Position numbers and translations under genes: made by a program. From Chthonomonadales bacterium (GTDB taxonomy: Bacteria; Armatimonadota; Chthonomonadetes; Chthonomonadales; CAJBBX01): 64,000 bases of DNA. The stretch spans positions 7,038 through 71,037 of the forward strand of contig JBBROJ010000006.1 of assembly GCA_038229495.1 (NCBI GenBank), in the 5' to 3' direction. Below are positions 7,145-42,086 of the stretch, one piece after another; the first letter of the stretch is position 1; the number at the start of each line of letters is the position of its first letter. A model generated the notes under the pieces. That model saw only the letters and a list, made by a program, of their open reading frames with translations, did no database searches and was not told the DNA's origin.

Positions 7145-8290
7145 ATGGACATCGTTCGATTCGGCATCATAGGCGTGGGCGGCATGGGCTTCGGTCATTG
7201 CGCCAGCATGAACCAGATAGAGGAGGCGCATCTGGCCGCCGTCTGCGATACCAACTACGCTGCCCTCAAAGAGGCCAAATCCAGGTATCGTGTACCCGGA
7301 TACGACAACTACGAGGCTCTGCTGGACAGCGGTCTCGTTGACGCCGTCATCATCGCCACGCCCCACTATTTTCATCCGCCCATCGCCGAGGCCGCTTTCC
7401 GCCGCAAGCTGCACGTTCTCTCCGAGAAGCCGATTGGCGTCACCGTTTCCGCCGCCGATGCCATGATTCGCGCGGCGAAAGAATCCGGTTGCGTGTTCGG
7501 CGTGATGTACCAGATGCGCTCATTGGAGCGCGTGCGGACGGCGCTTCGGCTCGTGCGCGAGGGCCGGCTTGGCGAGATCTACCGCACCTCGCTGGTCATG
7601 GGCTGGTATCGCAGCCAGGCATACTACGATTCGGGCGGCTGGCGCGCTACCTGGTCCGGCGAGGGTGGAGGCGTTCTCATAAACCAGGCACCCCATTTTC
7701 TCGACCTGTACACGCTTCTCTCTGGCCTCCCTGTGCGACTGACGGGCTGCACCCGCACGCGCCTGCACGACATTGAGGTCGAGGACGAGGCGTTCGCGAC
7801 ACTCGAATATTCCAACGGAGCCCACGGTTACCTGTACGCCAGCACCATTGAAGCGCCCGGCCACGAGATGCTGGAGCTTTGCGGCGACAAAGGCAAGCTC
7901 GTCATGCACGGCTCCAACCTGCGGTTCTTCGAAATTAAGACGCCCATCCGCGAGCATGTCCGCGAATCTACCGAGATGTGGGGCGGCCCCGAAACCGTCG
8001 AAATGGATCTGAATATTCCCATGACAGGCGGCCAGCACACGGACATCACCCGCAACTTCTGCCGCCACATTCTGTGTGGTGACCCGCTGCTTGCGCCGGG
8101 CGCGGAGGGAATCGACGCGGTCGAGCTTATCAACGGAATCATCCTATCCAGCCATACGGGCGAACCGGTCAGCCTGCCGGTAGACCGCACCGCCTACGAT
8201 CAGCTTATCGCCAAACTTCAGCGCGACTCGAAAAAGAAGCAGCATGTTTTGGAGCAGCGCGTCACGGACACGCACTACGCGGGCCGGTAA
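7145..8290 (+). CDS. Gfo/Idh/MocA family NAD(P)-dependent oxidoreductase
   Basis: 381-aa ORF. Rossmann N-terminus VRFGIIGVGGMG, and EKP motif (LSEKPIG). Confidence 0.85.
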   Translation: MDIVRFGIIGVGGMGFGHCASMNQIEEAHLAAVCDTNYAALKEAKSRYRVPGYDNYEALLDSGLVDAVIIATPHYFHPPIAEAAFRRKLHVLSEKPIGVTVSAADAMIRAAKESGCVFGVMYQMRSLERVRTALRLVREGRLGEIYRTSLVMGWYRSQAYYDSGGWRATWSGEGGGVLINQAPHFLDLYTLLSGLPVRLTGCTRTRLHDIEVEDEAFATLEYSNGAHGYLYASTIEAPGHEMLELCGDKGKLVMHGSNLRFFEIKTPIREHVRESTEMWGGPETVEMDLNIPMTGGQHTDITRNFCRHILCGDPLLAPGAEGIDAVELINGIILSSHTGEPVSLPVDRTAYDQLIAKLQRDSKKKQHVLEQRVTDTHYAGR

Positions 8291-8342
8291 CGATTTGCCC
8301 CCTCCTTTGCCGATCCGACGCCGCTTTGGTTCATAGTATAAC

Positions 8343-8375
8343 GATATGGATGAGATATGGATGAGATATGGATGA
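8343..8375 (+). repeat. tandem 11-bp repeat GATATGGATGA x3 overlapping the hemB start codon
   Basis: Three perfect head-to-tail copies at 8343-8353, 8354-8364 and 8365-8375. Each copy carries two ATGs. Confidence 0.9.
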
Positions 8376-9384
8376 TTCGTTGACACATACCAAGACAGAT
8401 TTCAGCGTAGATGCCCCGTTGCATCGCCTGCGCAGGCTGCGCGGCTCGGCCAACATGAGGCGTATGGTCCGCGAGACCCGCGTGACGGCGGACGATCTGC
8501 TCTACCCGCTGTTCGTCACGCACGCGAAGACCGCAACAATCCCTTCCATGCCGGGCATCAACCGGTTCTCCATAGACGACCTCTGCCGCGAAGTTGAAAG
8601 CGTCGCGAAGCTCGGCATACCTGCGATCATGCTGTTCGGCATTCCAGAAGAGAAGGACGAGCAGGGTTCCGGAGCCTATGCGGACGATGGAATCGTGCCG
8701 CGCGCTTTTCGCGCCCTCAAGCGGGCGGTGGGCGATTCCGTCCTGTTGGTCGCGGACGTCTGCCTCTGCGAATACACCTCGCACGGCCACTGCGGCCTGA
8801 TAGAGAACGGCGAGGTCGCCAACGACCCGACACTTGAGTTGCTTGCCCGCGCCTCCGTCACCTATGCGAGCGCGGGGGCCGACATCATTGCTCCCTCGGA
8901 CATGATGGATGGACGCATCGCGGCCATCCGGCTGGCGCTCGACGAAAACGGATTCACCGATCGGCCCATCATGGCATACGCGGCGAAATACTCCAGCGGA
9001 TTCTATGGACCGTTCCGCGAGGCGGCGGGCAGCGCCCCCCAGTTTGGGGACCGGCGCACCTACCAGATGGACCCGGCCAACCGGCGCGAGGCGATTCGCG
9101 AGGTGCTGCTGGACGTGGACGAGGGCGCGGACATCATCATGGTCAAACCCGCGCTCCCCTACCTTGATATTATTCGCGAGGTACGCGACGCCATCGATCT
9201 ACCTGTCGCCGCCTACAACGTAAGCGGCGAATATTCGATGGTCAAGGCGGCCGCCCAAAACGGCTGGATTGAAGAGGACCGGGTAATTGCCGAGACACTG
9301 GTGGGCATAAAGCGCGCGGGAGCGGACATCATCCTTACGTATCATGCAAAAGAGTTTCTGGAACGCGGGCTGGACAAACTGTAG
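8368..9384 (+). CDS. hemB: porphobilinogen synthase (delta-aminolevulinate dehydratase)
   Basis: 338-aa ORF. Motifs: [14 protein letters not shown], Zn-type Cys cluster [14 protein letters not shown], and active-site region [10 protein letters not shown]. Confidence 0.92.
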
Positions 9385-9488
9385 GCGCTCGGGCTGCGGC
9401 TGGATAGAAACATTTGAATCGCGTCGGGTATTCTGTCAGAAATCAAACAACTACCGCCGCGTCCGCCCGCGCACTGGAGAGTTTAAGC

Positions 9489-10604
9489 ATGATCGTCGGC
9501 GTTCCCAGGGAACTTAAGAACAACGAATACCGTGTCGCCCTCGTGCCCGCGGGCGCGGAAGTGTTGGTCGAGGATGGGCACACCGTTCTTATAGAAGCGG
9601 GCGCGGGCCTGGGAACCGGCATCGAGGACGCAGAGTACATCGAAGCGGGTGCCGAGATCGTGCCGGACGCGCGGACGCTGTTTTCCCGTTCCGACCTTAT
9701 CGTCAAAGTGAAGGAGCCGCTCGCCGGCGAGTACGAACTGCTACATCCCGGCCAGATTGTCTTTACCTACTTCCACTTCGCGGCCAGCGAAGAGCTGACT
9801 CGAGCCATGGTTGCCAGCCGCGCCGTTTGCGTAGCATACGAAACGATACAGCTTCCCGACGGCACGCTCCCGCTCCTTACGCCCATGAGCGAGGTTGCGG
9901 GGCGCATGGCGATACAGGAGGGCGCGAAATACCTGGAGCGCCCGATGGAGGGCCGAGGCATCCTGCTTGCCGGCGTGCCGGGGGTCCCTCCCGCAAATGT
10001 CGTCATTCTCGGCGGGGGAATCGTGGGCGCGAATGCGGCCAAGATAGCGGCGGGATTCGGAGCAAACGTCTATATACTCGACATCAATATGGAGCGTCTG
10101 CGCTACCTGGATGACGTGATGCCGCCCAACGTAACGACCATCTTCTCGAACCGGCTTAACATCCGCAACCTGCTGCCGCAGGCCGACCTGGTAATCGGGG
10201 GCGTGCTGCGACGCGGCGCGAAGGCCCCGGTGCTGGTGAGCCGAGAGATGCTGAAGTCCATGAAGCGCGGCGCGGTGGTGGTTGACGTGGCGGTGGACCA
10301 GGGCGGCTGCTTCGAAACCACGCACCCTACGACCCACAGCGAGCCCACCTACATCGTGGAGGGCGTCGTGCACTACTGCGTTGCGAACATGCCCGGCGCG
10401 GTCGCGGGAACTTCGACCTACGCGCTGACCAACGAGACCTTGCCCTACCTGCGCCGCCTGGCCAACAAGGGATGGAAGCAGGCGTGCCGTGAGAGCGCGG
10501 CGCTTAAAATGGGCCTAAATGTGGTAGACGGGAAGGTCTGCTTCCCCGATGTTGCCGAGCAGTTTGCACTTCCTTATACTCCCGTCGACGAAATCGTCGC
10601 CTGA
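9489..10604 (+). CDS. ald: alanine dehydrogenase
   Basis: Start re-picked at ATG 9489 (MIVGVPRELKNNEYRVAL, the canonical Ald N-terminus). NAD fold VVILGGGIVG. About 371 aa. Confidence 0.9.
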   Translation: MIVGVPRELKNNEYRVALVPAGAEVLVEDGHTVLIEAGAGLGTGIEDAEYIEAGAEIVPDARTLFSRSDLIVKVKEPLAGEYELLHPGQIVFTYFHFAASEELTRAMVASRAVCVAYETIQLPDGTLPLLTPMSEVAGRMAIQEGAKYLERPMEGRGILLAGVPGVPPANVVILGGGIVGANAAKIAAGFGANVYILDINMERLRYLDDVMPPNVTTIFSNRLNIRNLLPQADLVIGGVLRRGAKAPVLVSREMLKSMKRGAVVVDVAVDQGGCFETTHPTTHSEPTYIVEGVVHYCVANMPGAVAGTSTYALTNETLPYLRRLANKGWKQACRESAALKMGLNVVDGKVCFPDVAEQFALPYTPVDEIVA

Positions 10605-10626: not shown

Positions 10627-11688
10627 ATGCCTGAATCCCCTGCCGAGAATACGCCGCAAGGAAATGCTCTTAACGGCGCCGCCGCACCTCGACGGTCCGC
10701 ACGGGAGTTTTTGGATAGCTATCGCGGCATTTTTGCGTTCGTGCTGGTCTTTATGCTTGGCTGCTTCTTCACGCCCCGCGCGTTCGATACGGGCCTGCCC
10801 ATATTCCTCTCGTGGCATACCCAGCTCGACATCCTCTTTGAATATTGCGAATACGGGCTGCTGGCAACCGGCATGACGCTCGTAATCCTGAGCGGTGGAA
10901 TCGACCTATCGGTCGGCTCCGTCGTCGGTCTGTCCGCCACGCTCTTCGCGCTGCTGACGGTTGGGTTCGGCTGGCCTATCGGGCTGGCGCTGGGGGCCAT
11001 CGTGCTGGCGGGGCTGGCCGTTGGGTCCATCAACGGCATAATGGTCTCGCGATTTCGCATGCAGCCGTTCGTGGCTACCCTGGCGATGATGACGGCGGCG
11101 CGCGGGCTCGCAAAGATGATTTCGGGCGGCATTAAGGTGCAGCCCGCCGCGCAGCCCTGGTACAAGGTTACCGGCAGCTCGCCTCCGTTCTTCTCCTGGA
11201 TGACCAAGGCGCTGCCCGGAATCGGGATACAGCCAGCCACGTTCCTGTTCCTGATATGTATTCTGATTATGACGATTATCGTGCGGCGCGCCGCGTACGG
11301 CAGGAAGCTTTACGCCATTGGTGGGAACGAAGAGGCGGCCCGACTCTCGGGAATTGGGGTGGACTGGGTCAAGCTGAAAACGTATGCCCTCTGCTCAATG
11401 TTTGCCGCGCTGGCGGGGGTGGTGAACGCGTGCCGCCAGGACCTGGGCGACCCCGAGGCGGGTGCGGGGTTCGAGCTGGACGCAATAGCTGCGGTCGTTA
11501 TCGGGGGCACGAGCCTCGCGGGCGGGCGCGGGGGCATGGGCTTTACGTTTCTCGGCGTTTTGATAGTCGCGTATATAAACAAGATTCTCAGTCTGCGTGC
11601 CGTGCCTATCGCTCCGCGAATGATCATTCAGGGCGTGATAATTGCTCTGGCCGTACTGATTCAAAGACAGAAAAGGGAGAAATCATGA
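10627..11688 (+). CDS. sugar ABC transporter permease (RbsC/AraH-like)
   Basis: Polytopic membrane protein with TLVILSGGIDLSVGS and IAAVVIGGTSLAGGRG motifs. Start re-picked at ATG 10627. The stop overlaps the next gene's start (ATGA at 11685-11688). Confidence 0.85.
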   Translation: MPESPAENTPQGNALNGAAAPRRSAREFLDSYRGIFAFVLVFMLGCFFTPRAFDTGLPIFLSWHTQLDILFEYCEYGLLATGMTLVILSGGIDLSVGSVVGLSATLFALLTVGFGWPIGLALGAIVLAGLAVGSINGIMVSRFRMQPFVATLAMMTAARGLAKMISGGIKVQPAAQPWYKVTGSSPPFFSWMTKALPGIGIQPATFLFLICILIMTIIVRRAAYGRKLYAIGGNEEAARLSGIGVDWVKLKTYALCSMFAALAGVVNACRQDLGDPEAGAGFELDAIAAVVIGGTSLAGGRGGMGFTFLGVLIVAYINKILSLRAVPIAPRMIIQGVIIALAVLIQRQKREKS

Positions 11689-32354: not shown

Positions 32355-32948
32355 ATGAAGACGACGACATCCATAAACGGCTTGCGACACACGCCCGCGC
32401 TGCTTGGACTTACGATTGTCGCGCTCGCCAGCATCCCAAACCTTCCGGCCCGGGCACATATCGGCCATTGGCTGCCGGTATCCAATAACAACCCGCGAAC
32501 GGTGGCGGCCAACGACCTCAAAACAGCCGAGCAGACAGCGACTCACGGTACGATATCCGGCGACAAGAAGACGCTCACCTTTACTGAAAAGGCAATCACC
32601 TTCGTTGTGGAGACCGGGCCGGATGACGACATGCTGTCATATCGGATCGCCGGACTGCGCAATCCGACCGTCGTCCTCCCACGCGGCGCGGTCGTAACCG
32701 TGCTGTTCGTGAACCGTGACGGCGATATGACGCACGACTTGCGCTTTACCGCGGCCCATGCGCCGTTCCCGATGGAGCCGAACCGAAAGGACTCCGTTGG
32801 CAGCGCAACGCTCGTCCATGCCGACAAGTCGGTCCAGCACGCCGAGCAGTTCACAATGCGCGCGGAAAAGGCGGGCGACTATGCCTACCTCTGTACGGTA
32901 AAAGGCCATGCCAAAGGGGGCATGTTCGGGGTCCTGCAAGTCAAGTAA
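32355..32948 (+). CDS. type-1 (blue) copper protein, cupredoxin fold
   Basis: Signal peptide. Type-1 ligand pattern H (DMTHDL) ... YLCTVKGHAKGGMFG (C-x4-H-x4-M). Confidence 0.75.
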   Translation: MKTTTSINGLRHTPALLGLTIVALASIPNLPARAHIGHWLPVSNNNPRTVAANDLKTAEQTATHGTISGDKKTLTFTEKAITFVVETGPDDDMLSYRIAGLRNPTVVLPRGAVVTVLFVNRDGDMTHDLRFTAAHAPFPMEPNRKDSVGSATLVHADKSVQHAEQFTMRAEKAGDYAYLCTVKGHAKGGMFGVLQVK

Positions 32949-33035
32949 CCGCGCGCATCTGGAGCAAGACAGACCGCTTCGCTGCCGTTCGGCCTTAATG
33001 TGTCGGACGGTAGCGGATGGAGCATTAAATATACC

Positions 33036-34280
33036 ATGAAGAACGAGAACGAAAAGGTAGACCGCAGACAGTTTCTCTCGATGGCCGGGCTGACGGGCGC
33101 CGGCCTGATTGCCGGCGGCCAGGCAGCCGAAGCTCAGCACGAGAATACTCACCCAATTCAAAAGCCCGATTCCTGGCCCTCTCAGTTTGTATTGGCAGAG
33201 ACGGCGCCCAGGTATGCGCCGCGCGACATGCCAAAGCCGGGCGATAAGATCCACGAATTCGATATCGAAGTCACCGTGGAAAAGATCGAGATTCTGCCGC
33301 TGGAGGAGCACCACTTCTATACATTCAACAAGTCGCTCCCTGGGCCGTTGATCCGCGTCAAAGAAGGCGATTGGGTCAAGGTGAATCTCATCAATAAGAC
33401 ACATGACTTCCATACCATCCACTGGCACGGAATCTACGTGCCGTGCGAAATGGACGGCGTACCGCTGGGAACGCAGTATCCGGTCGGCTTTAACCAGACG
33501 TTTACCTATCTCTGGCGGGCCCAGCCTGCGGGCACGCACTTCTACCACTGCCACAACATGACGAACATGCACATTCAGGCGGGACTTTACGGCGCGCTCA
33601 TTATCGATCCGGAGGACGAGGACCCGATCCAAAAAGCGTTCCCGTATGAACGCGAGTATACGCTGATCCTCAGCGAAGTGGACACCGATTTTCTCCGCGA
33701 ACAGATCAACGAGATGCTGGAGATGGGAGTCAGAATGGACCGGATGAATGCGTCCGCCAAGCTCATGCAGAAGATGGATGGCCGCATGATGGGATGGTTC
33801 GCCAATAAGGAGGCGTTCCTCAAGGCGGTAAAGGACGGCTGGATTCCCCCCTACCACCGCAGCCGAACGGGACCGACCCGGCGTATCGAGCCGAACTTCT
33901 TCCTCATCAACGGACGGCCCTATCCGATGACCGAGCACATGCACATCAAACGAGGAGAAAACATCCGCGTGCGGATGATTAACGCCGGCCTCATGCCGCA
34001 CTTCATGCACCTGCACGGACATGACTTCTGGCACGTGGCGCACGACGGCTCGCCTCTGGCTTCACCGGTCCGGGCCAATACGATTCCGGTCTATCCCGGC
34101 TCGACGACGGACATCGTGGTCCAGGGCACGAACCCCGGCCACTGGCACTTCCACGACCACAGCGACCTGAGCATCATGAACAACGGAAAGTCGCCGGGCG
34201 GCATGATGACGATGCTGATGTACGAGGACGCGGAAGAGGCGGGCTTCAAATTCAAGGAGATTATCGCCCTCGACTCCTGA
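33036..34280 (+). CDS. Tat-exported multicopper oxidase (small, two-domain-like) with Met-rich insert
   Basis: Twin-arginine signal VDRRQFLSMAGLTGAGLIAGG. HxH motifs: HTIHWHG, FYHCHNMTNMH, HFMHLHGH, HWHFHDH. Met-rich segment MLEMGVRMDRMNASAKLMQKMDGRMMGW. Confidence 0.85.
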   Translation: MKNENEKVDRRQFLSMAGLTGAGLIAGGQAAEAQHENTHPIQKPDSWPSQFVLAETAPRYAPRDMPKPGDKIHEFDIEVTVEKIEILPLEEHHFYTFNKSLPGPLIRVKEGDWVKVNLINKTHDFHTIHWHGIYVPCEMDGVPLGTQYPVGFNQTFTYLWRAQPAGTHFYHCHNMTNMHIQAGLYGALIIDPEDEDPIQKAFPYEREYTLILSEVDTDFLREQINEMLEMGVRMDRMNASAKLMQKMDGRMMGWFANKEAFLKAVKDGWIPPYHRSRTGPTRRIEPNFFLINGRPYPMTEHMHIKRGENIRVRMINAGLMPHFMHLHGHDFWHVAHDGSPLASPVRANTIPVYPGSTTDIVVQGTNPGHWHFHDHSDLSIMNNGKSPGGMMTMLMYEDAEEAGFKFKEIIALDS

Positions 34281-34374
34281 CCGGCATCGAGACGCCATCG
34301 GGCGCTCGTCGTCAGGCGCTTGATGAGGCTTGATGAAGTCGGCAGCCTTGTCTGCTATCGGGCATTCTTTACGC

Positions 34375-35634
34375 ATGAAGAGGAGACATGTTGTGAATCT
34401 GACGGAAAATCCCGGCCGCATATTGAAAACGGCGCTGGCGCTGGCCATATCGACCCTACCGACGTTCGCGCATGGACAGGCGCAGCGCACGCCCGTTCCT
34501 GAGAAGCCCAGTGTCGCTCCGCAGATCGAGGTAGACGGAACCGGCATTGCCACGCTGGAAGGACAATCGCCTCGTATCACGCTGTCGAGCGGCAATCGCT
34601 CAAGCGCCAGCCGGATCAATGTTTCCGATTCGGCCATCCTGCTGGGCGCTTCGGAGAGGCTCTTTCGCAAGGGCGGAATCGGCAGCTTCGTAATAGGCAC
34701 GACTTCCACTGAAACGGACGCGACCCCGAGCGGCACCGGTATGTTCCTGCACCAGATGTTCGTGAACTACCAGACCCGTTCATCGGAGGCGACGCTCGGC
34801 AGGACCGACGTTGCCACGCGCCTTATCGACTTCCCCACGATTCGGGGCGACGACCTCAACGAATTCGTCAACATGCTAAACCCCTTCTCTAACGGGGACA
34901 ACGTGGAAGAGCATCGGTATAGCGACCAGGCTTCTTTTACGCTCACCCGCAACCTGCGTCACTTCCTGAACTTCCACGCGCAGCATCTTGTGACCAGCAC
35001 AGCCCGGACAATCGGTCAGGGCGGCCTCAATTCTTTCGGCGTGAGCTACCAGTATCAGACGATCCCCGCACTGGAGGTGCTGACCAAGATACCGCTCTGG
35101 GGCGTGGGCTTTGAGCGACAGGATATTGGCCAGGGATTTGGCGGCGCAGCCAATCTTGTCTATGGAGGCGTAGTTTACAATATCCAGCCTGACCCGGTAG
35201 ATCGCATCGACCTGCGCGTCCAGGACATTTACAGCTTCGGCAACGACACGTCCGCCTTCGCCTCGGTTGCGGATACGTTCCGGGCAGCCAACAATACGGT
35301 CGCCGCTTCGCTGCGGTGGCTTCATAGTCCGTTCGGCACCCCCGGTCATCAGGTAGCCCTGACTATCGGCTACAAGAACTACAACAAGGTATCGAACGCC
35401 AACACGCTGGGATTGGCTCTAACCGGCGTAAAGCGACTCGGCGACGGTTTCGACCTGGTGGCTCAGTATTCCTATCATCACCGGCAGCCGGCGTACGCCG
35501 CGACGTTCAGCAACGTTCGCAACGAGCACTCGGTGCAGGTGGGGTTTGTCTTCAACTTCACCAACACCTTCAACCAACACCTGGGACCCCGCCGGTCGCT
35601 GCTCAACTTGCAGCACCAGTACGTTCCCGACTAA
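34375..35634 (+). CDS. putative outer-membrane beta-barrel protein
   Basis: Signal peptide ..ALALAISTLPTFAHG. Alternating-hydrophobicity strands and an aromatic-rich C-terminal strand (VQVGFVFNF). An alternative start is GTG 34393, 6 nt after AGGAGA. Confidence 0.5.
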   Translation: MKRRHVVNLTENPGRILKTALALAISTLPTFAHGQAQRTPVPEKPSVAPQIEVDGTGIATLEGQSPRITLSSGNRSSASRINVSDSAILLGASERLFRKGGIGSFVIGTTSTETDATPSGTGMFLHQMFVNYQTRSSEATLGRTDVATRLIDFPTIRGDDLNEFVNMLNPFSNGDNVEEHRYSDQASFTLTRNLRHFLNFHAQHLVTSTARTIGQGGLNSFGVSYQYQTIPALEVLTKIPLWGVGFERQDIGQGFGGAANLVYGGVVYNIQPDPVDRIDLRVQDIYSFGNDTSAFASVADTFRAANNTVAASLRWLHSPFGTPGHQVALTIGYKNYNKVSNANTLGLALTGVKRLGDGFDLVAQYSYHHRQPAYAATFSNVRNEHSVQVGFVFNFTNTFNQHLGPRRSLLNLQHQYVPD

Positions 35635-35711: not shown

Positions 35712-37025
35712 ATGAACGCCGTAAAACACAACATAACAGCACGTCGGGCAGGCTTCCTAACGTTCGCCGCGGCAACAGCAGCGATCGCGCTGTTCCTCGA
35801 AGCGCCAAGCGCATGGGCACAGGACCACTCTGAGCACGGGAGAGGCAGTGATAACAGGGGTGGCTCCGACAAGGAGTCGATGCGAAATGTTTCCCGCCTC
35901 AAGGAGAAGCGCATGCTGACAGTGACTGGCCAGGAAGACTGGGACAGCATGCTGAGCTTCGGGCCCGACTCCTCCATGGCAGAGATGATGATCCAGATGA
36001 TGGTTGGAGGCTCCGGCATGGAGCACATGAAGATGGCGGCCATGAAATCCGGCATGCGCATGGGCAGCATCACAGACCGTGTGCCTATGCTCGGTGCGGC
36101 GAGTGACAAAGGCGCAATCGCTGGCAAAAGCAGCGGCTTCCCGGTGACGGTAACCGTCACACCGAATCCACCGGTCGTCGGCGACAACAAGCTGGATATT
36201 GTCGTAACTGACGCGTCTGGAAAGCCGGTCACGGGCCTGAAGCTCTCATCGGCAGTCGGCATGACCAGCATGGACATGGGCACCGAGCGGCCAAAAGCGA
36301 CCGAAGGCCCGGACGGACGCTACTCGCTCCCCGTCAAATTCCGCATGAAGGGCCCGTGGCGCGTGACTCTCACGAGCGACACGCCAAAGGGGATGAAGAG
36401 CAGCGACGCTGTCAATGTTCCGCTGGATTTTAATGTCGGCAGCAAGGACAAATGGTCCATCCCTGCGGCACGTGCGAAATCCACTGCCGCTGCATCTAAA
36501 GAGCACGCAGCAAAGGAGGCATCTACAAACCAAGCGCCGCATACGTCTGACGCAAAGGAAGGCACGGGGGCGCCATTAGTCAAATTGCCAGAGCAAGCGC
36601 CAGCTCCTCAAAAGGCAATAGCTGCTGCGCCGGAGCTGGCACAGCCTGCGCGCGTTCCATCCACTTCCGCATCGGCCGTGTTAGAGACGGCGACAACGCC
36701 TGCTCCAACGGCCTCATCTGACACCGGAGTCAAGATTGTTCTCGACACCAAGCCAGATGCGGTCAAGGTCGGAAAGAACATCCTCTCGTTTACTATTCTG
36801 GATCCGAGCGGGAAGGCTCTTTCCGGTGCAAAAGTAACGTCTTCGGTCGCTATGACCAGCATGGACATGGGCACGACGCATCCGACGGCGAAAGAGGGTA
36901 AGGGAGGTCATTACACAGCGCCCGTTGAGTTCAGCATGAAAGGCCCCTGGCGAGTTGTCGTCACTGTCCAGGGGAAGGGCCAAAAACCGGCGACGCGCTC
37001 CTTCGACTTCGACGTGAAGAAGTAG
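35712..37025 (+). CDS. exported protein with Met-rich region and two YtkA/FixH-like domains
   Basis: Signal peptide. Met-rich region MAEMMIQMMVGGSGMEHMKMAAMKSGMRMG. Two repeats of ..V(V/K)VG.N.L...(V/I)(T/L)D.SGK...G.K..SSV.MTSMDMGT....A.EG..G.Y..PV.F.MKGPWRV... Confidence 0.7.
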   Translation: MNAVKHNITARRAGFLTFAAATAAIALFLEAPSAWAQDHSEHGRGSDNRGGSDKESMRNVSRLKEKRMLTVTGQEDWDSMLSFGPDSSMAEMMIQMMVGGSGMEHMKMAAMKSGMRMGSITDRVPMLGAASDKGAIAGKSSGFPVTVTVTPNPPVVGDNKLDIVVTDASGKPVTGLKLSSAVGMTSMDMGTERPKATEGPDGRYSLPVKFRMKGPWRVTLTSDTPKGMKSSDAVNVPLDFNVGSKDKWSIPAARAKSTAAASKEHAAKEASTNQAPHTSDAKEGTGAPLVKLPEQAPAPQKAIAAAPELAQPARVPSTSASAVLETATTPAPTASSDTGVKIVLDTKPDAVKVGKNILSFTILDPSGKALSGAKVTSSVAMTSMDMGTTHPTAKEGKGGHYTAPVEFSMKGPWRVVVTVQGKGQKPATRSFDFDVKK

Positions 37026-37159
37026 GCGCCTGGACGTACGACGAAGGCGAATTGGGTTGATACCTATCTGAAACGCACGGGCACACGGCCGCAGGAGGCT
37101 CCCGCCCGCCCGCCGCAAGAGCCGATGGGCTGATCTTAACAACAATGGAGATACGAATT

Positions 37160-37282
37160 ATGCCTGAAAAACCACATCGTTACGAACAGGAAGACCCGCG
37201 CCACGACCATCCTCAGGGACGTGAAGGGCACGGGCACACGCACGGCTTCGTAGACCCCTCCATTGCGCCGACGCCTGCTTGA
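37160..37282 (+). CDS. His-rich 40-aa micro-protein (possible remnant of a cation-transporter N-terminus)
   Basis: ATG 37160 lies 9 nt after GGAGA. Sequence: MPEKPHRYEQEDPRHDHPQGREGHGHTHGFVDPSIAPTPA. The stop TGA is at 37280-37282, inside the SD of the next gene. Confidence 0.4.
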   Translation: MPEKPHRYEQEDPRHDHPQGREGHGHTHGFVDPSIAPTPA

Positions 37283-37293
37283 AGGAGCACGAT

Positions 37294-38481
37294 ATGAAGA
37301 TGCTGGCAGAGTGCATCCGCCTCGACAAGGACTGCGCGTCCATATGCTGGGAGGCGGCGGGTTACATGAGTCGCGGTTCGCGGCTCACAGCCCAAGTCTG
37401 CCGTCTCTGCGCCGACATCTGCGACGCCTGTGCTCAAGAGTGCGAGAAGCACCAGCCCATGGAGCACTGTCGGCAATGTGCGGAAGCCTGTCGACTTTCC
37501 GCCGAGGCGTGTCGCCGCATGACAGGCGCTGCGGGCTGCGGCCTGACAGAGCCGTGGAAGTCTCGGCGGCGGGCCAGAAACTCCTGGCCCGCCGCTACAA
37601 TCTCGAAGACCGTCATGGCAGTTCGGATAGTATTATTGATCCTGGTTATGGGCGTTGTGGCGCCTGTCTGCGCCACCGCGCTTCCGAAATTTCACAAGGT
37701 CTTCCTGCAGACCTACCAGCCAAAGCCAGGGTCGCCCCTGGGCGAAGCAAAGTGCCTGACGTGTCACGCGTCACCTGGCCCGCCGAAACGTAACTCCTAC
37801 GGCAAACTGGTGGAGGAAACGATACATGGGGCAGGATCGCACGACGAGGTAACTGCTGCCCTGCTCCATAAGATCGAAAGTGTGGACTCGGACGGAGACG
37901 GGTGGACAAACGGACAGGAAATTGCGGAAGGAACACTTCCTGGAGACCCGATAAGCCATCCCCTCGCAACACCTTCATCAAGCACGGCACTTCCGAGCCC
38001 CCAAGTTCCAGACGCACAGCCTGCGGTTTCCAAGCAGTCTTCATCCGGTCTTCAGCGCATGCTGATGCCCAAACATTCGTTCCATCCCATTATCGTTCAT
38101 TTCGCGTTGGCTCTTTTCATATTTGGCGCTACGCTGGAAATCCTTGGTTTACTGAAGCGTCGCCCGAATCTCTCTGAGGCGGGCTTTATGAATATGACAA
38201 TTGGCAGCATGGCCGGCGTTGCCGCGGCCGCCACCGGTCTCGTCGCGGCATACAGGAATGGATTCCCTTGGAAAGGCACTTTGCTCATACACCTCATCCT
38301 GGGCTTAACAGCGGCGCTGGGAATGGCGACGACCGCTTGCTTGGGATACCGGGCGTCTCGCTTCCGGCGAGAACGTTACTCGCGCGTTTACCTAGCGCTG
38401 GTCGTTATTTCCTTGCTGCTCGTGATTGCAGCGGGATTTTTCGGCGGCGAGTTCGTATACACTGAGTTGATGGGAATGTAA
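37294..38481 (+). CDS. fusion protein: Cys-rich four-helix-bundle (DUF326-like) domain, TM anchor, CXXCH haem-c motif, DUF2231-like 4-TM domain
   Basis: ATG 37294 follows GAAGGAG. Cys-rich region CIRLDKDCASIC..VCRLCADICDACAQECEKH..EHCRQCAEACRLSAEACRRM. Then KSRRRARN, a TM helix, and AKCLTCH. Then DSDGDGWTNGQE. Then HSFHPIIVHFALALFIFG, a DUF2231-type start. There is no stop between the parts. An internal ATG lies at 37615. Confidence 0.65.
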   Translation: MKMLAECIRLDKDCASICWEAAGYMSRGSRLTAQVCRLCADICDACAQECEKHQPMEHCRQCAEACRLSAEACRRMTGAAGCGLTEPWKSRRRARNSWPAATISKTVMAVRIVLLILVMGVVAPVCATALPKFHKVFLQTYQPKPGSPLGEAKCLTCHASPGPPKRNSYGKLVEETIHGAGSHDEVTAALLHKIESVDSDGDGWTNGQEIAEGTLPGDPISHPLATPSSSTALPSPQVPDAQPAVSKQSSSGLQRMLMPKHSFHPIIVHFALALFIFGATLEILGLLKRRPNLSEAGFMNMTIGSMAGVAAAATGLVAAYRNGFPWKGTLLIHLILGLTAALGMATTACLGYRASRFRRERYSRVYLALVVISLLLVIAAGFFGGEFVYTELMGM

Positions 38482-38617
38482 GATAACGCTCCGCCGGACA
38501 GACAAGCAGTGACTCACGTGCGCAGGCCGTGTCGACTCATTTAGGCTGCGGTTTCACTCATGCAGACGGGAGCCGCCAGATACCTTGGATAATCGCCAGG
38601 ACGCGAAAGGAAAAGCC

Positions 38618-40039
38618 ATGAAGCGTACCCTACTCGCCACAACTCTGACAGGGGCTCTGCTGTTCGGTCCACGACCGCTCGTCGCTCAGGAGCATCAGCA
38701 TGATCCGGCCAAAGAACCGGCCAAGAAGCGCGGCGCGCAGGAAGAACAGGCGCCCATACCGATGCAGCACGACATGTCCAAAATGCAGCCCTCCGAGAAG
38801 GGCAAGGCCATGCCGCATGACATGAAGCAAATGTCCGGTCACAATATGAGCCACATGCAAGGGATGGACATGATGTCGTCCTTCGCGGGCATCCCCATGA
38901 CCCGCGACGCATCCGGCACTTCCTGGCAGCCGGACAGCACTCCCATGCACGCAAAGCACGAGATGAGCGGTCTCTGGAGAGTAATGCAGCACTACAGCGG
39001 TTTCCTGAGTTATGACAACCAGGGCGGGCCGCGCGGAAGCGATCAAGTACACGGAATCGGCTGGTACATGCTGATGGTCTCCCGTCCGCTGGGCCGGGGA
39101 GAGCTAACGCTGCGCACCATGCTGAGCCCGGAGCCGCTGACCGTGGGAAAACACGGCTATCCGCTGCTCTTCCAGAGTGGCGAGGCGGTGAACGGCAAGC
39201 CGCTGGTGGATGTTCAGCATCCGCACGATCTTTTCATGGAGCTGGCGGCGCGCTACCGCTACAAGCTGGACGACAGGACCGCTGTTTCCCTCTATGTCGC
39301 TCCGTCCGGCGAGCCAGCCATTGGCCCCACTGCATTCCCCCATCGGACGTCGGCGCTGGACAATCCCCTGGCGCCGATCTCGCACCACTGGCAGGACGGG
39401 ACCCATATCACGTTCGGCGTACTGACAGCGGGAATATCTCGCGACAAGTGGCAGCTGGAAGGCTCTTACTTTAACGGTAGGGAGCCGGACGAGAACCGGT
39501 GGGACATAGATTCAATCCGCCTTAACTCCTTTGCCGGGCGGTTGAGCTATAATCCCGGTTCCAATTGGAACCTGCAAAGTTCGTATGCCTATGTCAAGAG
39601 CCCGGAGTCGCTGCGGCCGGACGAGGATGTGCGGCGGACAACGTTGTCCGCAAGCTACAATCGTCCGCTTTCAGAAGGCGGCAACTGGGCAAGCACGTTC
39701 GTCTGGGGACGAAACAGCTCTCACGGATCGAACACCGACTCGCTGTTGCTGGAGACGGACTACAACATCGCGAATCGAAACACGCTGTTCGGGCGGTTGG
39801 AGCACGTTGTGAAGGCAGGCGAGGAGCTGGCGCTTATGCCCACGAATCGCAAGTTTGGTATCACGGAGCTGACTTTGGGCGGCGTCCATGAGTTGACCCA
39901 GGGCCGCGCATACCAGGCGGGAATCGGCGCGGCGGTAACGTTCAATTGGAAGCCGGGCGATCTCGATTCGCTCTACGGCAAGGACCCGATGGGGGTCTGG
40001 GTCTTCCTACGTATTCGGCCCGCGCCTATGGCGCATTGA
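38618..40039 (+). CDS. uncharacterised Met/His-rich outer-membrane barrel protein (paralog 1)
   Basis: Signal peptide. HQHD..MQHDMSKMQ..MPHDMKQMSGHNMSHMQGMDMM. Conserved motifs SGTSWQPDSTPM, HPHD, PISHHWQDGTHI and GRLSYNP. C-terminus FLRIRPAPMAH. Confidence 0.65.
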   Translation: MKRTLLATTLTGALLFGPRPLVAQEHQHDPAKEPAKKRGAQEEQAPIPMQHDMSKMQPSEKGKAMPHDMKQMSGHNMSHMQGMDMMSSFAGIPMTRDASGTSWQPDSTPMHAKHEMSGLWRVMQHYSGFLSYDNQGGPRGSDQVHGIGWYMLMVSRPLGRGELTLRTMLSPEPLTVGKHGYPLLFQSGEAVNGKPLVDVQHPHDLFMELAARYRYKLDDRTAVSLYVAPSGEPAIGPTAFPHRTSALDNPLAPISHHWQDGTHITFGVLTAGISRDKWQLEGSYFNGREPDENRWDIDSIRLNSFAGRLSYNPGSNWNLQSSYAYVKSPESLRPDEDVRRTTLSASYNRPLSEGGNWASTFVWGRNSSHGSNTDSLLLETDYNIANRNTLFGRLEHVVKAGEELALMPTNRKFGITELTLGGVHELTQGRAYQAGIGAAVTFNWKPGDLDSLYGKDPMGVWVFLRIRPAPMAH

Positions 40040-40145: not shown

Positions 40146-40385
40146 ACGCAGGCGTAACGGGGATTTTGCGAGCGGTCCTACATTAATTTTCGGCGCTACG
40201 TTATGTGGCGCCGTGTTCGTTTCACCCGTTGCCCTACGGCCGTCGAGAGCATTGACAACGTTCTATCAGGTAAGAGGTTTACACTCCAGGCAAACGCTGC
40301 TAGAAGGTATACTGCGGTAAGGATGACGCAAAGCTTCTCATCATATTTCCCAGCCCTATTGCGCATCCAAGACAGAGGAGTTTCC

Positions 40386-42086
40386 ATGAAAGCTAACTAT
40401 ATTTCCGTATTGGTAATTACTGGCGCCGTGCTGGCCACCGGCCTGTTAGCGCAGACAGTCACCGGGAATTCCTATACGGCGGCGCTTAAGACCGATCCTA
40501 AGACCATCCAACCAGGCAAGTCCACGACCCTCGATATCTATATCATGGATTCGACCTCGAAGACTCCCAGCGAAAACCTCACCATCACCGCGTCCTTTAA
40601 TATGCCAGCCATGACGGGCATGACATTGGACCAGCCCAAAGTGACCCTAAGTGACAAGCCCGGCCACTTTAACGTGCAGCTCACGTTCCCCCATGCCGGA
40701 AGCTATAAACTTGCCCTCACGGTCAACCCGACAACCGGGAAGAGCGCCACCCTGTCCTTCAATATCACACCCGGCAGCGCCGGAGGCGCAGCCGTGAAAG
40801 ACATGTCAGGAATGTCAGGAATGTCAGGAATGCAGGGGATGCAGATGAAAGCAAGCCTCGGGAACTGGTTGGCAAGCCGGGAAGGTTCAGGGACGTCGTG
40901 GCAGCCGGACTCTTCGCCGATGTTCATGAAGACGCTTGGCTCGCTGGGAAGATTTGACTTAAGCGCAATGGGAACGATCCAGGGAGGTTACGTAGACGAT
41001 GGCGGTACGCGTGGCGATAGAGGCTTTTTCACCAACTCGATGTTAATGCTCATGGGCCGCCGCGAACTGGGTGGCGGAACCCTCGGCCTACATTTTATGA
41101 CTTCGCTCGATCCCATTATCAACGGCAGACACGGCGTTCCGAATCTCTTTCAAAACGGATTTACAGTCCACGGCGTTGACATCGGCGACCGGAAAGACCC
41201 GCATAATGTCTTTGCGGAAATCGCGGCCAACTACAGCCATCCGCTTTCCAAAGCTTGGACCGGCTTCATTTACGGCGGCCCCGTCGGCGAACCGGCGCTG
41301 GGGAATGTCATGTACTTGCACCGCACGAGCGGCCTAGAGATCCCCGAAGCGCCTATCAGCCACGATTGGTTTGACGGCACCCACATCAGCTTGGGAGTCG
41401 CGACTCTGGGACTTGTTTATCAAGATAAGTGGAAGCTTGAAGGTTCCGTTTTCAATAGTCACGAGCCTTCCAACCTTTACGGCATTGGCAAAGTCGAACT
41501 TAACTCGGCATCCGGTCGACTCAGCTACAATCCGTCCCACGACTGGTCGTTTAGCACTTCCTACGGATATTTGGACTCCGACGTCAATGAACACCGCCTC
41601 ACTTTTGGCGGGGCCTACAGCCACCCGCTCCCCCACGGCGACAATCTTTCCGCGACCGCCTATTTCGGCCAAAATATCGTTCAAGGGTCCGCAAAGTCCA
41701 ACGCATGGCTTGCGGAGGCGACATATTACCACGCTAAGGATGCATTTTTCGCCCGCTTTGAACGAGTTGATAAGGACGAGCTCGTCAATGTGCCGCCCGG
41801 AAACTACACGATCAACAAGCTGCTCTTTGGTGACGTGCACAACTTCTATAGCAAAGCCCAGATCGACTATGGTCTGGGAGCCTACTTCGGCGTCTACAGC
41901 TTCCCGAGTTCCCTAAACGCTCTCTACGGTAAGAACCCGCTCACCTTCGGCGTGTTCCTACGCATCCGCCCGGCTGCTATGCAACACAGCGGAGGATACG
42001 GAGGAGGCATGGCCGACGAACACATGAAGTCCCACGAGATGAAGAACGACAGGATGAACTCTGGCTCCGGCATGGACATGCCATGA
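40386..42086 (+). CDS. YtkA-like domain fused to Met/His-rich outer-membrane barrel (paralog 2)
   Basis: ATG 40386 follows GAGGAG. Signal peptide. N-terminal Ig-like YtkA-type domain (..PGKSTTLDIYIMD..MPAMTGMTLDQP..GHFNVQLTF). MSGMSGMSGMQGMQM. SGTSWQPDSSPM and the same downstream motifs as paralog 1. Tail MADEHMKSHEMKNDRMNSGSGMDMP. Confidence 0.7.
   Translation: MKANYISVLVITGAVLATGLLAQTVTGNSYTAALKTDPKTIQPGKSTTLDIYIMDSTSKTPSENLTITASFNMPAMTGMTLDQPKVTLSDKPGHFNVQLTFPHAGSYKLALTVNPTTGKSATLSFNITPGSAGGAAVKDMSGMSGMSGMQGMQMKASLGNWLASREGSGTSWQPDSSPMFMKTLGSLGRFDLSAMGTIQGGYVDDGGTRGDRGFFTNSMLMLMGRRELGGGTLGLHFMTSLDPIINGRHGVPNLFQNGFTVHGVDIGDRKDPHNVFAEIAANYSHPLSKAWTGFIYGGPVGEPALGNVMYLHRTSGLEIPEAPISHDWFDGTHISLGVATLGLVYQDKWKLEGSVFNSHEPSNLYGIGKVELNSASGRLSYNPSHDWSFSTSYGYLDSDVNEHRLTFGGAYSHPLPHGDNLSATAYFGQNIVQGSAKSNAWLAEATYYHAKDAFFARFERVDKDELVNVPPGNYTINKLLFGDVHNFYSKAQIDYGLGAYFGVYSFPSSLNALYGKNPLTFGVFLRIRPAAMQHSGGYGGGMADEHMKSHEMKNDRMNSGSGMDMP

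Follow-up and report, generated by a model that had tools for sequence, protein, structure and literature searches.

The region 37160-38481 of the 64-kb stretch of Chthonomonadales DNA analysed here (contig JBBROJ010000006.1; the whole stretch is hereafter the window) raises the question of whether one bacterial polypeptide joins copper storage in the cytoplasm to redox chemistry in the periplasm, or whether genes that were once separate have run together. A preliminary description noted a His-rich micro-ORF (open reading frame) with its own Shine-Dalgarno (SD) sequence, followed by a longer ORF that leads without a stop from a Cys-rich part through a basic stretch, a CLTCH motif and a DSDGDGW loop into a DUF2231-type membrane domain; it saw in this a novel architecture that would connect Cu(I) buffering in the cytoplasm with a redox site in the periplasm. 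Both ORFs and all the quoted motifs are indeed present, with GGAG 5' of the micro-ORF start and an open frame from ATG 37294 to 38481, and only the count of His in the micro-ORF needs correction, from eight to six in 40 residues. The proposed architecture itself is unsupported, being a singleton that carries three lesions. The locus is probably a gene-decay scar in a copper-resistance island and not a designed three-module protein. Its components would be a pseudogenised Csp3 copper-storage gene, the stub of a cation diffusion facilitator (CDF) gene and a new member of a cytochrome c-DUF2231 family that is known to the databases but uncharacterised (Table 1).

The 395-residue product of the longer ORF matches two Pfam families, DUF326 (PF03860) over its first ~80 residues with 33.7 bits (gathering cut-off 20.4) and DUF2231 (PF09990) at residues 261-391 with 66.3 bits and E = 3.8e-18 (cut-off 26.4). 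NCBIfam gives partial, sub-threshold matches only. The Csp1/Csp family model TIGR04401 reaches 35 bits of the 100 required and aligns only at its positions 76-150 of 151, and the GEGP-motif dihaem model diheme_GEGP, matched over residues 151-232 of the product, reaches 36.9 bits of 300. Between the two Pfam matches lie the basic stretch KSRRRARN (37558-37581), an internal ATG at 37615, CLTCH at 37753-37767 and, from 37885, DSDGDGW. AAGGAG is separated from ATG 37294 by 6 nucleotides; an upstream ATG at 37145 would lengthen the micro-ORF to 45 residues. The public record of the contig annotates the 395-residue product as a single coding sequence with both PF03860 and PF09990 (P0001, 100% identity), an entry from which the mining of domain architectures or Rosetta-stone pairs would wrongly conclude that copper-storage and DUF2231 proteins are physically linked.

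Distribution of the two parts among homologues

In the first search the window's own protein alone spanned both parts. At E<=1e-30 an exhaustive profile search yielded 147 representatives; conservation was scored in 80 diverse sequences. Among the 147, the DUF326 extension of 104 residues in front is found in the window protein only, and nearly all of the full-length representatives have 240-310 residues and start at around profile position 10. None of the 11 longest members, which were inspected individually, has DUF326: ten owe their length to Ala/Pro/Thr-rich linkers, and P0148, the 11th longest, has an unrelated N-terminal extension that probably results from a mis-called start. Viewed from the other part, all 120 DUF326 homologues listed (of 164) carry PF03860 only. 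Fused orthologues were absent from the genome scan, the word-indexed search and the exhaustive profile search alike.

The nearest relatives, P0002-P0007, are proteins of 265-292 residues with 56-33% identity that cover only the last ~72% of the query. They open with a signal peptide aligned to MAVRIVLLILVMGVVAPVCATA, after which the cleaved window protein would begin LPKF; the closest of them is P0002 (56% identity). Likewise, the genome loci of Armatimonadetes and Chthonomonadales match residues 105-389 only. The preliminary description had allowed that ATG 37615 might start a separate protein, and it is there that the Met residues of the orthologues align. Every orthologue of the CXXCH/DUF2231 part starts at the equivalent of 37615 with a signal peptide of its own, and the two parts are separate elsewhere, an outcome that the preliminary description had named as refuting its proposal.

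The two families do occasionally meet as neighbours. At the genome locus L021 (5001-6029) a Csp3 gene ends in TGA and is followed, after a spacer of 114 nucleotides, by a DUF2231-only gene; at the metagenomic locus L039 (1139-2047) the Csp3 gene ends in TAA and the spacer is 12 nucleotides. L039 is the one such case among 53 metagenomic loci with enough downstream sequence, L021 being additional to these. By a rough estimate this pairing exceeds chance, which hints at a role of DUF2231 proteins in copper homeostasis. The Csp3 and DUF2231 families are thus occasional operon partners, always as separate genes.

Lesions upstream of the DUF2231 gene

The homologue search with the Cys-rich part gave the 164 Csp3/DUF326 homologues mentioned above, with a modal length of 112-113 residues, to which the window copy is 60-74% identical. 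The family profile matches the solved Csp3 structures, which cover the whole of it (BsCsp3, 5fig, E=5e-34; also Streptomyces Ccsp and MtCsp3). Csp3 proteins assemble as tetramers; each monomer is a four-helix bundle that has 18-19 Cys in its core and binds ~19 Cu(I), and the Cu(I) core requires all four helices (PMC5171941).

When compared with these proteins, the Cys-rich part shows three lesions: helix 1 has been lost, Ser has taken the place of a near-invariant Cys, and the stop codon is gone. The first was anticipated by the preliminary description, which counted about three of the four helices; alignment and tblastn agree that one is missing. Homology starts at 37261, 33 nucleotides 5' of ATG 37294 and still within the 3' end of the micro-ORF, which is read in a different frame. 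The first matching residue is family residue 22 (HCADACL...), so that helix 1 (residues 1-21) is gone. A further 11 codons of Csp3 homology precede ATG 37294 and are likewise missing from its product, in which no part of helix 1 is translated; upstream of the remnant stands an in-frame TGA at 37222. ATG 37294 is the sole usable start and corresponds to an internal Met of the loop between helices 1 and 2, the apparent SD sequence AAGGAG being a Lys-Glu codon pair of the old Csp3 frame. Counted from this ATG there are 12 Cys, against 19 in the homologue P0161, and the lost helix accounts for six of the 19.

The second lesion lies in the last helix. At the column of the Ser, Cys is present in 9/9 aligned homologues, and the motif CxxCxxxCxxM is kept in 48 of 50 metagenomic Csp3 loci. 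As to the third, eight of the nine aligned homologues terminate with M-x-G-x-x-x(-A) and a stop, the ninth being shorter. Where L021 has gcc gcc gcc TGA, the window has gct gcg ggc TGC at the same position. In the 50 loci the stop follows 2-18 residues (mode 5) after the C..M motif; in the window five residues follow and then TGC. A tblastn search revealed neither a second copy nor the remainder of a Csp3 gene in the window. The remnant therefore shares with Csp3 (PF03860; 5fig, 5arm, 6q58) the Cys spacing of helices 2-4 and the lack of a signal peptide, but it differs in having no helix 1, 12 Cys instead of 18-19 and Ser in place of a near-invariant Cys. Moreover, Csp3 is a stand-alone protein of ~110 residues with its own stop, whereas the frame of the remnant continues for 313 more codons.

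Some DUF326 homologues far exceed the norm of 112 residues, at 178-240 residues (P0008 with 240, P0162, P0192 and others). P0008 has a long Arg/Ala-rich tail past CRRMASMAG that looks as if translation ran on into non-coding sequence. Lost stops or wrongly called ends may be recurrent in the DUF326 family.

With the Csp3 stop gone, the frame stays open across the 25 codons of what was once spacer and enters the next gene. Homologue coverage ends at around residue 92 of a 118-residue query, and in the AlphaFold2 (AF2) model of the 395-residue product the predicted local distance difference test score is below 50 at residues 81-103. This linker and the first ~30 residues are the low-confidence portions of a model in which only two N-terminal helices are confident. 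Stretches of 25 codons without a stop make up 56% of all those in the window and, multiplied by the one-in-three chance of a frame match, this gives ~0.19 for read-through by chance, so that a chance read-through into a same-frame neighbour is plausible. Comparable stop-loss 'fusions' or pseudogene chimeras occur in bacterial annotation. Here too, a single base distinguishes stop from sense codon (TGA in L021, TGC in the window), adjacent same-strand genes share a frame by chance and the arrangement is a singleton. The present case differs in that the upstream partner is also 5'-truncated, by a second event that left the stub of a third gene.

That third gene is recognizable in the micro-ORF. 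Its tail had been likened to the N-terminus of some CDF transporters, and a tblastn search of plasmids with the 40-residue peptide bears this out, 9 of the 13 matches lying in annotated CDF genes (best E=1e-3). The position of the match was inspected in two plasmid records and is at the extreme N-terminus in both, at codons 13-44 of a 441-codon CDF gene (L019) and codons 32-47 of a 450-codon one (L020). CDF proteins read GHGHTHGVVDPSIASSERGIWAIKWSF and then enter the first transmembrane (TM) helix; the window counterpart reads GHGHTHGFVDPSIAPTPA and stops. Full-length CDF queries match the window by tblastn at 37169-37273 only, and neither the remaining body of the transporter nor a second copy is present anywhere else in its 64 kb. 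On sequence grounds, then, the micro-ORF represents the opening ~36 codons of a gene for a CDF metal transporter. It has the same HGHTHG-x-VDPSIA N-terminus as CzcD-like CDF proteins with His-rich N-terminal tails on Bradyrhizobium, Rhizobium and Agrobacterium plasmids, but the window keeps only these ~36 codons, and the six TM helices (the Cation_efflux domain) and the C-terminal domain are not found in it. Of the two origins first suggested for the micro-ORF, a remnant left by a deletion thus holds up, CDF homology ending at the junction.

The other suggestion, that the micro-ORF encodes a functional His-rich peptide (a metallochaperone, or a metal-sensing leader regulating the downstream genes), we regard as most improbable. 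It does have its own start codon and GGAG as well as six His, and its TGA, which lies 11 nucleotides before the next ATG and overlaps AAGGAG, could allow translational coupling. Against this, a search among 5.8 billion proteins gave no candidate sharing three 5-residue words with the peptide, which leads us to reject the idea of a conserved small protein. The peptide resembles nothing but the N-termini of full-length CDF transporters, a likeness that breaks off at the junction, and the last four codons with the stop (PTPA and TGA) are Csp3 sequence in the wrong frame.

The junction itself can be placed closely. CDF homology extends in frame 1 as far as 37267 (...D P S I A), and Csp3 homology sets in at 37258/37261 in frame 2 ((L)H C A D A C L...), leaving an overlap of 7-10 nucleotides, (CTC)CATTGCG, compatible with both parent genes. 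The alignments show codon ~36 of a CDF gene abutting codon 22 of a Csp3 gene, out of frame. The overlap suggests microhomology, and a microhomology-mediated deletion would leave such a junction, although the homologues compared are distant. Among 44 informative metagenomic loci, none has a CDF gene directly 5' of Csp3, and these loci therefore give no picture of how much was deleted or of what it contained.

We consider it very unlikely that the junction, the TGC at 37537 or both are errors of assembly or sequencing, with the real genes intact and separate. This would be compatible with the origin of the sequence in a single 76.9-kb NCBI contig of a possibly metagenome-derived assembly, with no close relatives in the collections searched and no second copy found as confirmation. 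However, the stop loss is a substitution and not a homopolymer indel, the overlap of 7-10 nucleotides is too short for an assembler to join upon, the GC content is unbroken across the region, and three independent lesions within a gene of 280 nucleotides suit biological decay better.

The homology boundaries point to the following course of events. A rearrangement, most simply a deletion, joined CDF codon ~36 to Csp3 codon 22 out of frame, which left a CDF stub of 40 codons and a Csp3 gene deprived of its first helix. The remnant also carries the Cys-to-Ser change, and TGC stands at the position of its stop, so that the frame is open through the former spacer into the same-frame neighbour. The functional product would presumably be the mature protein from the Leu that follows ATA at the signal-peptide cleavage site. 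Signal-peptidase cleavage would yield this same mature protein whether translation starts at 37294 or at 37615, and the stop loss may for that reason have been selectively neutral.

Several observations weigh against decay. The remnant keeps 38 of the 39 columns invariant in homologues, contains no internal stop or frameshift and is as similar to its homologues (60-74% identity) as they are to one another. This leaves two possibilities, recent lesions or continuing selection on the piece. ATG 37294 is preceded by the strong AAGGAG and ATG 37615 by no recognizable SD sequence, a lack found in two of the eight starts checked in the island, 37615 included. Csp3/DUF2231 pairs recur, as in L021 and L039, and a functional link is conceivable. 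CDF-Csp3 adjacency, which as a common arrangement would have dated the deletion, is absent from the 44 informative loci, and among the genomes available none is close enough to reveal the ancestral state. A scan of 36800-38800 for promoters and terminators gave no hint of the start used, finding nothing promoter-like and a single terminator-like site, fewer than the 2.1 expected from shuffles.

The same observations bear on the idea of a genuine functional fusion, consisting of a cytoplasmic thiolate-rich three-helix module, an uncleaved signal-anchor and a periplasmic haem c/DUF2231 module. The ORF is intact behind its AAGGAG, 12 Cys remain along with the conserved columns, and the joining of gene pairs as tight as those of L039, with its 12-nucleotide spacer, and L021 would be a classic Rosetta-stone event. 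Nevertheless, we judge such a fusion unlikely. It is a singleton among the 147 representatives and 164 homologues; helix 1 with six of the 19 Cys is gone and another near-invariant Cys is lost, from a core that needs four helices (PMC5171941); the N-terminus stems from an out-of-frame join to a CDF stub instead of a clean domain boundary; the linker, predicted to be disordered, derives from non-coding spacer; and the conserved cleavage site between AxA and xP would in any case cut the halves apart. It is, similarly, distinctly unlikely that the read-through ORF is translated from ATG 37294 and selected as a nascent Rosetta-stone fusion of a Csp3 and DUF2231 pair of the kind that forms a tight operon at L039 and L021. 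If true, this would tether a thiolate-rich helical module in the cytoplasm to a membrane protein with periplasmic haem c domain and His cluster, a single polypeptide linking cytoplasmic Cu(I) to periplasmic redox chemistry.

Table 1. Position and character of the features of the locus and of neighbouring genes (window coordinates)
Feature	Position	Strand	Remarks
ORF, 40 residues	37160..37282	+	Own start, GGAG upstream; tail GHGHTHGFVDPSIAPTPA, then stop
CDF gene stub	37160..37282	+	~36 His-rich cytoplasmic N-terminal codons, 4 out-of-context codons, TGA
Rearrangement junction	37258..37267	+	From ends of two tblastn alignments, three-frame translation and homologue alignment
5'-truncated Csp3/DUF326 copper-storage gene remnant	37261..37536	+	Codons 22-112 of 112-113-residue homologues
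Uninterrupted ORF, 395 residues	ATG 37294 to 38481	+	AAGGAG 5' of start
Cys-to-Ser, last helix	37498..37500	+	TCC; CRLSAEACRRM instead of CxxCxxxCxxM
TGC (Cys) at ancestral stop position	37537..37539	+	From alignment and comparison with L021
Former intergenic spacer, 25 in-frame codons	37540..37614	+	GLTEPWKSRRRARNSWPAATISKTV; without homology, predicted disordered
Intact gene, 288-residue precursor	37615..38481	+	Stand-alone orthologues align from Met
Sec signal peptide	37615-37680	+	Cleavage between ATA and LP; residues 108-129 of 395-residue ORF
Small CxxCH domain	CLTCH 37753-37767	+	
DxDxDG Ca-type loop	37885-37920	+	Plus LPGDP motif
4-TM DUF2231 domain	38074-38466	+	Periplasmic-side His cluster; Pro/Ser-rich linker precedes
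Multicopper oxidase	33000-34280	same	Weak sub-threshold Tat-signal match
434-residue protein	34330-35634	same	No family match
Protein with two YtkA/FixH-like stretches	35712-37025	same	
Protein with Met/His-rich N-terminal region	38585-40039	same	Sub-threshold match to Pfam BBP2 (beta-barrel porin)
Protein with N-terminal YtkA domain	40203-42086	same	C-terminal part resembles 38585-40039 product by eye

The exported DUF2231 protein

Its orthologues show the downstream gene to be intact and a member of a large, stand-alone, exported and uncharacterised family. The part from ATG 37615 is a full-length family member; the window copy differs in being the only one preceded in frame by foreign sequence. 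The preliminary description placed a TM helix past the basic stretch. The hydrophobic segment is there, but it is a cleavable Sec-type signal peptide, with cleavage between AxA and xP, and matches the N-termini of the orthologues. At the cleavage site A occupies position -1 in 75/80 sequences and P position +2 in 79/80.

The CxxCH motif is conserved in all 80 sequences, contrary to the possibility that it might prove not to be. Also invariant are N60, G63, P109, H157, H162, F163 and H226, while the DxDxDGxxNxxE loop and LPGDP are nearly so; the latter two are present in the window protein, as is N-x-Y/F-G. Its DUF2231 domain contains H157, H162 and H226. A His in the fourth TM helix (AGHxGG), present in 73 of the 80 members, is Phe in the window (AAGFFGG, 38428-38448), as in four of the 80. 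The closest orthologue, P0002, also has Phe here (AAFFGG), and the subclade of the two has lost one conserved DUF2231 His.

AF2 models contain four confident TM helices and, with less confidence, a small helical periplasmic domain. Judging by this topology, in which the N-terminal domain is put on the outside by the signal peptide, the conserved DUF2231 His would all lie near the periplasmic face. The mature protein is thus probably located in the inner membrane, with a candidate haem c domain and a conserved His cluster facing the periplasm. The window protein has no significant fold match in the PDB and no match to any Pfam cytochrome c model. Related cytochrome c plus DUF2231 proteins are annotated in public data (P0010, for example), and there is essentially no literature on DUF2231/PF09990. 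The neighbouring genes encode a multicopper oxidase, YtkA-domain proteins and predicted outer-membrane barrel proteins. We suggest, with low-to-moderate confidence, that the mature protein probably donates electrons to, or takes them from, copper chemistry in the periplasm.

The PDB matches to the periplasmic part are confined to four cytochrome f sequences, with E-values of 0.03-0.7 (best 0.031), aligned over the mature N-terminus and the haem site; on the window side the alignment reads KPPFWELYRTYYKIDPDQPTGQAKCKNCH after the Ala of the cleavage site. The mature N-terminus at 37681-37767, LPKFHKVFLQTYQPKPGSPLGEAKCLTCH, is similar to its counterpart in cytochrome f, where cleavage of the signal peptide frees the alpha-amino group of residue 1 to serve as sixth haem ligand and Pro2 is conserved. 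In the DUF2231 family, Pro is found at mature position 2 in 79/80 sequences, an aromatic residue at position 4 in 67/80 and Tyr at position 12 in 66/80, and no other His or Met reaches 40% at any position of the CxxCH domain. Cytochrome f-type ligation would call for a mature x-P-x-aromatic N-terminus ~20 residues before CxxCH and no side-chain sixth ligand, a pattern that the family conserves. The DUF2231 proteins differ from cytochrome f in that their spacing to CxxCH is three residues longer and the remaining protein is unrelated, and the E-values are marginal. With statistics of this marginal kind, the likeness suggests haem ligation by an N-terminal amino group outside photosynthetic cytochrome f. 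Such ligation would account for the lack of a side-chain ligand. Cleavage between ATA and LP would be needed for it, which again argues against the DUF326 extension being part of the mature protein.

Genomic context

The locus lies within a same-strand block of genes that looks like a copper-resistance island, across which the GC content is continuous. Three of its genes (34330-35634, 38585-40039 and 40203-42086) encode predicted outer-membrane barrel proteins, the last two being Met/His-rich N-terminally. The barrel proteins look like the CopB/PcoB type, the sole family match among them being that of the 38585-40039 product to BBP2, below threshold.

Copper- or metal-related contexts were found for three of ~7 DUF2231 family loci examined, the contexts of the remaining members inspected being unrelated. 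In Armatimonadetes bacterium Uphvl-Ar1 (L008) the flanking genes encode a 561-residue protein with YHS, TRASH and YtkA domains (8197-9882) and a cupredoxin-like protein (10819-11247), which gives the family another metal setting, independent of the first. Together with the Csp3 pairs of L021 and L039 and the island described here, this occurrence of DUF2231 beside copper genes provides a testable copper context for an uncharacterised membrane family.

At L005, the locus of the closest orthologue P0002, the DUF2231 gene has its own GGAGG; the gene upstream encodes an unrelated membrane protein, and downstream comes a homologue of the gene at 38585-40039 in the window. This homologue (L005, 1140-1403) is reduced to an 87-codon ORF that matches the middle part, and may be a truncated gene in a related copper cluster or else reflect a problem of contig quality. 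Finally, the window contains a 468-codon ORF at 32637-34043 on the minus strand, antisense to the multicopper oxidase gene; in sequence this rich in GC it is almost certainly spurious, a shadow ORF.

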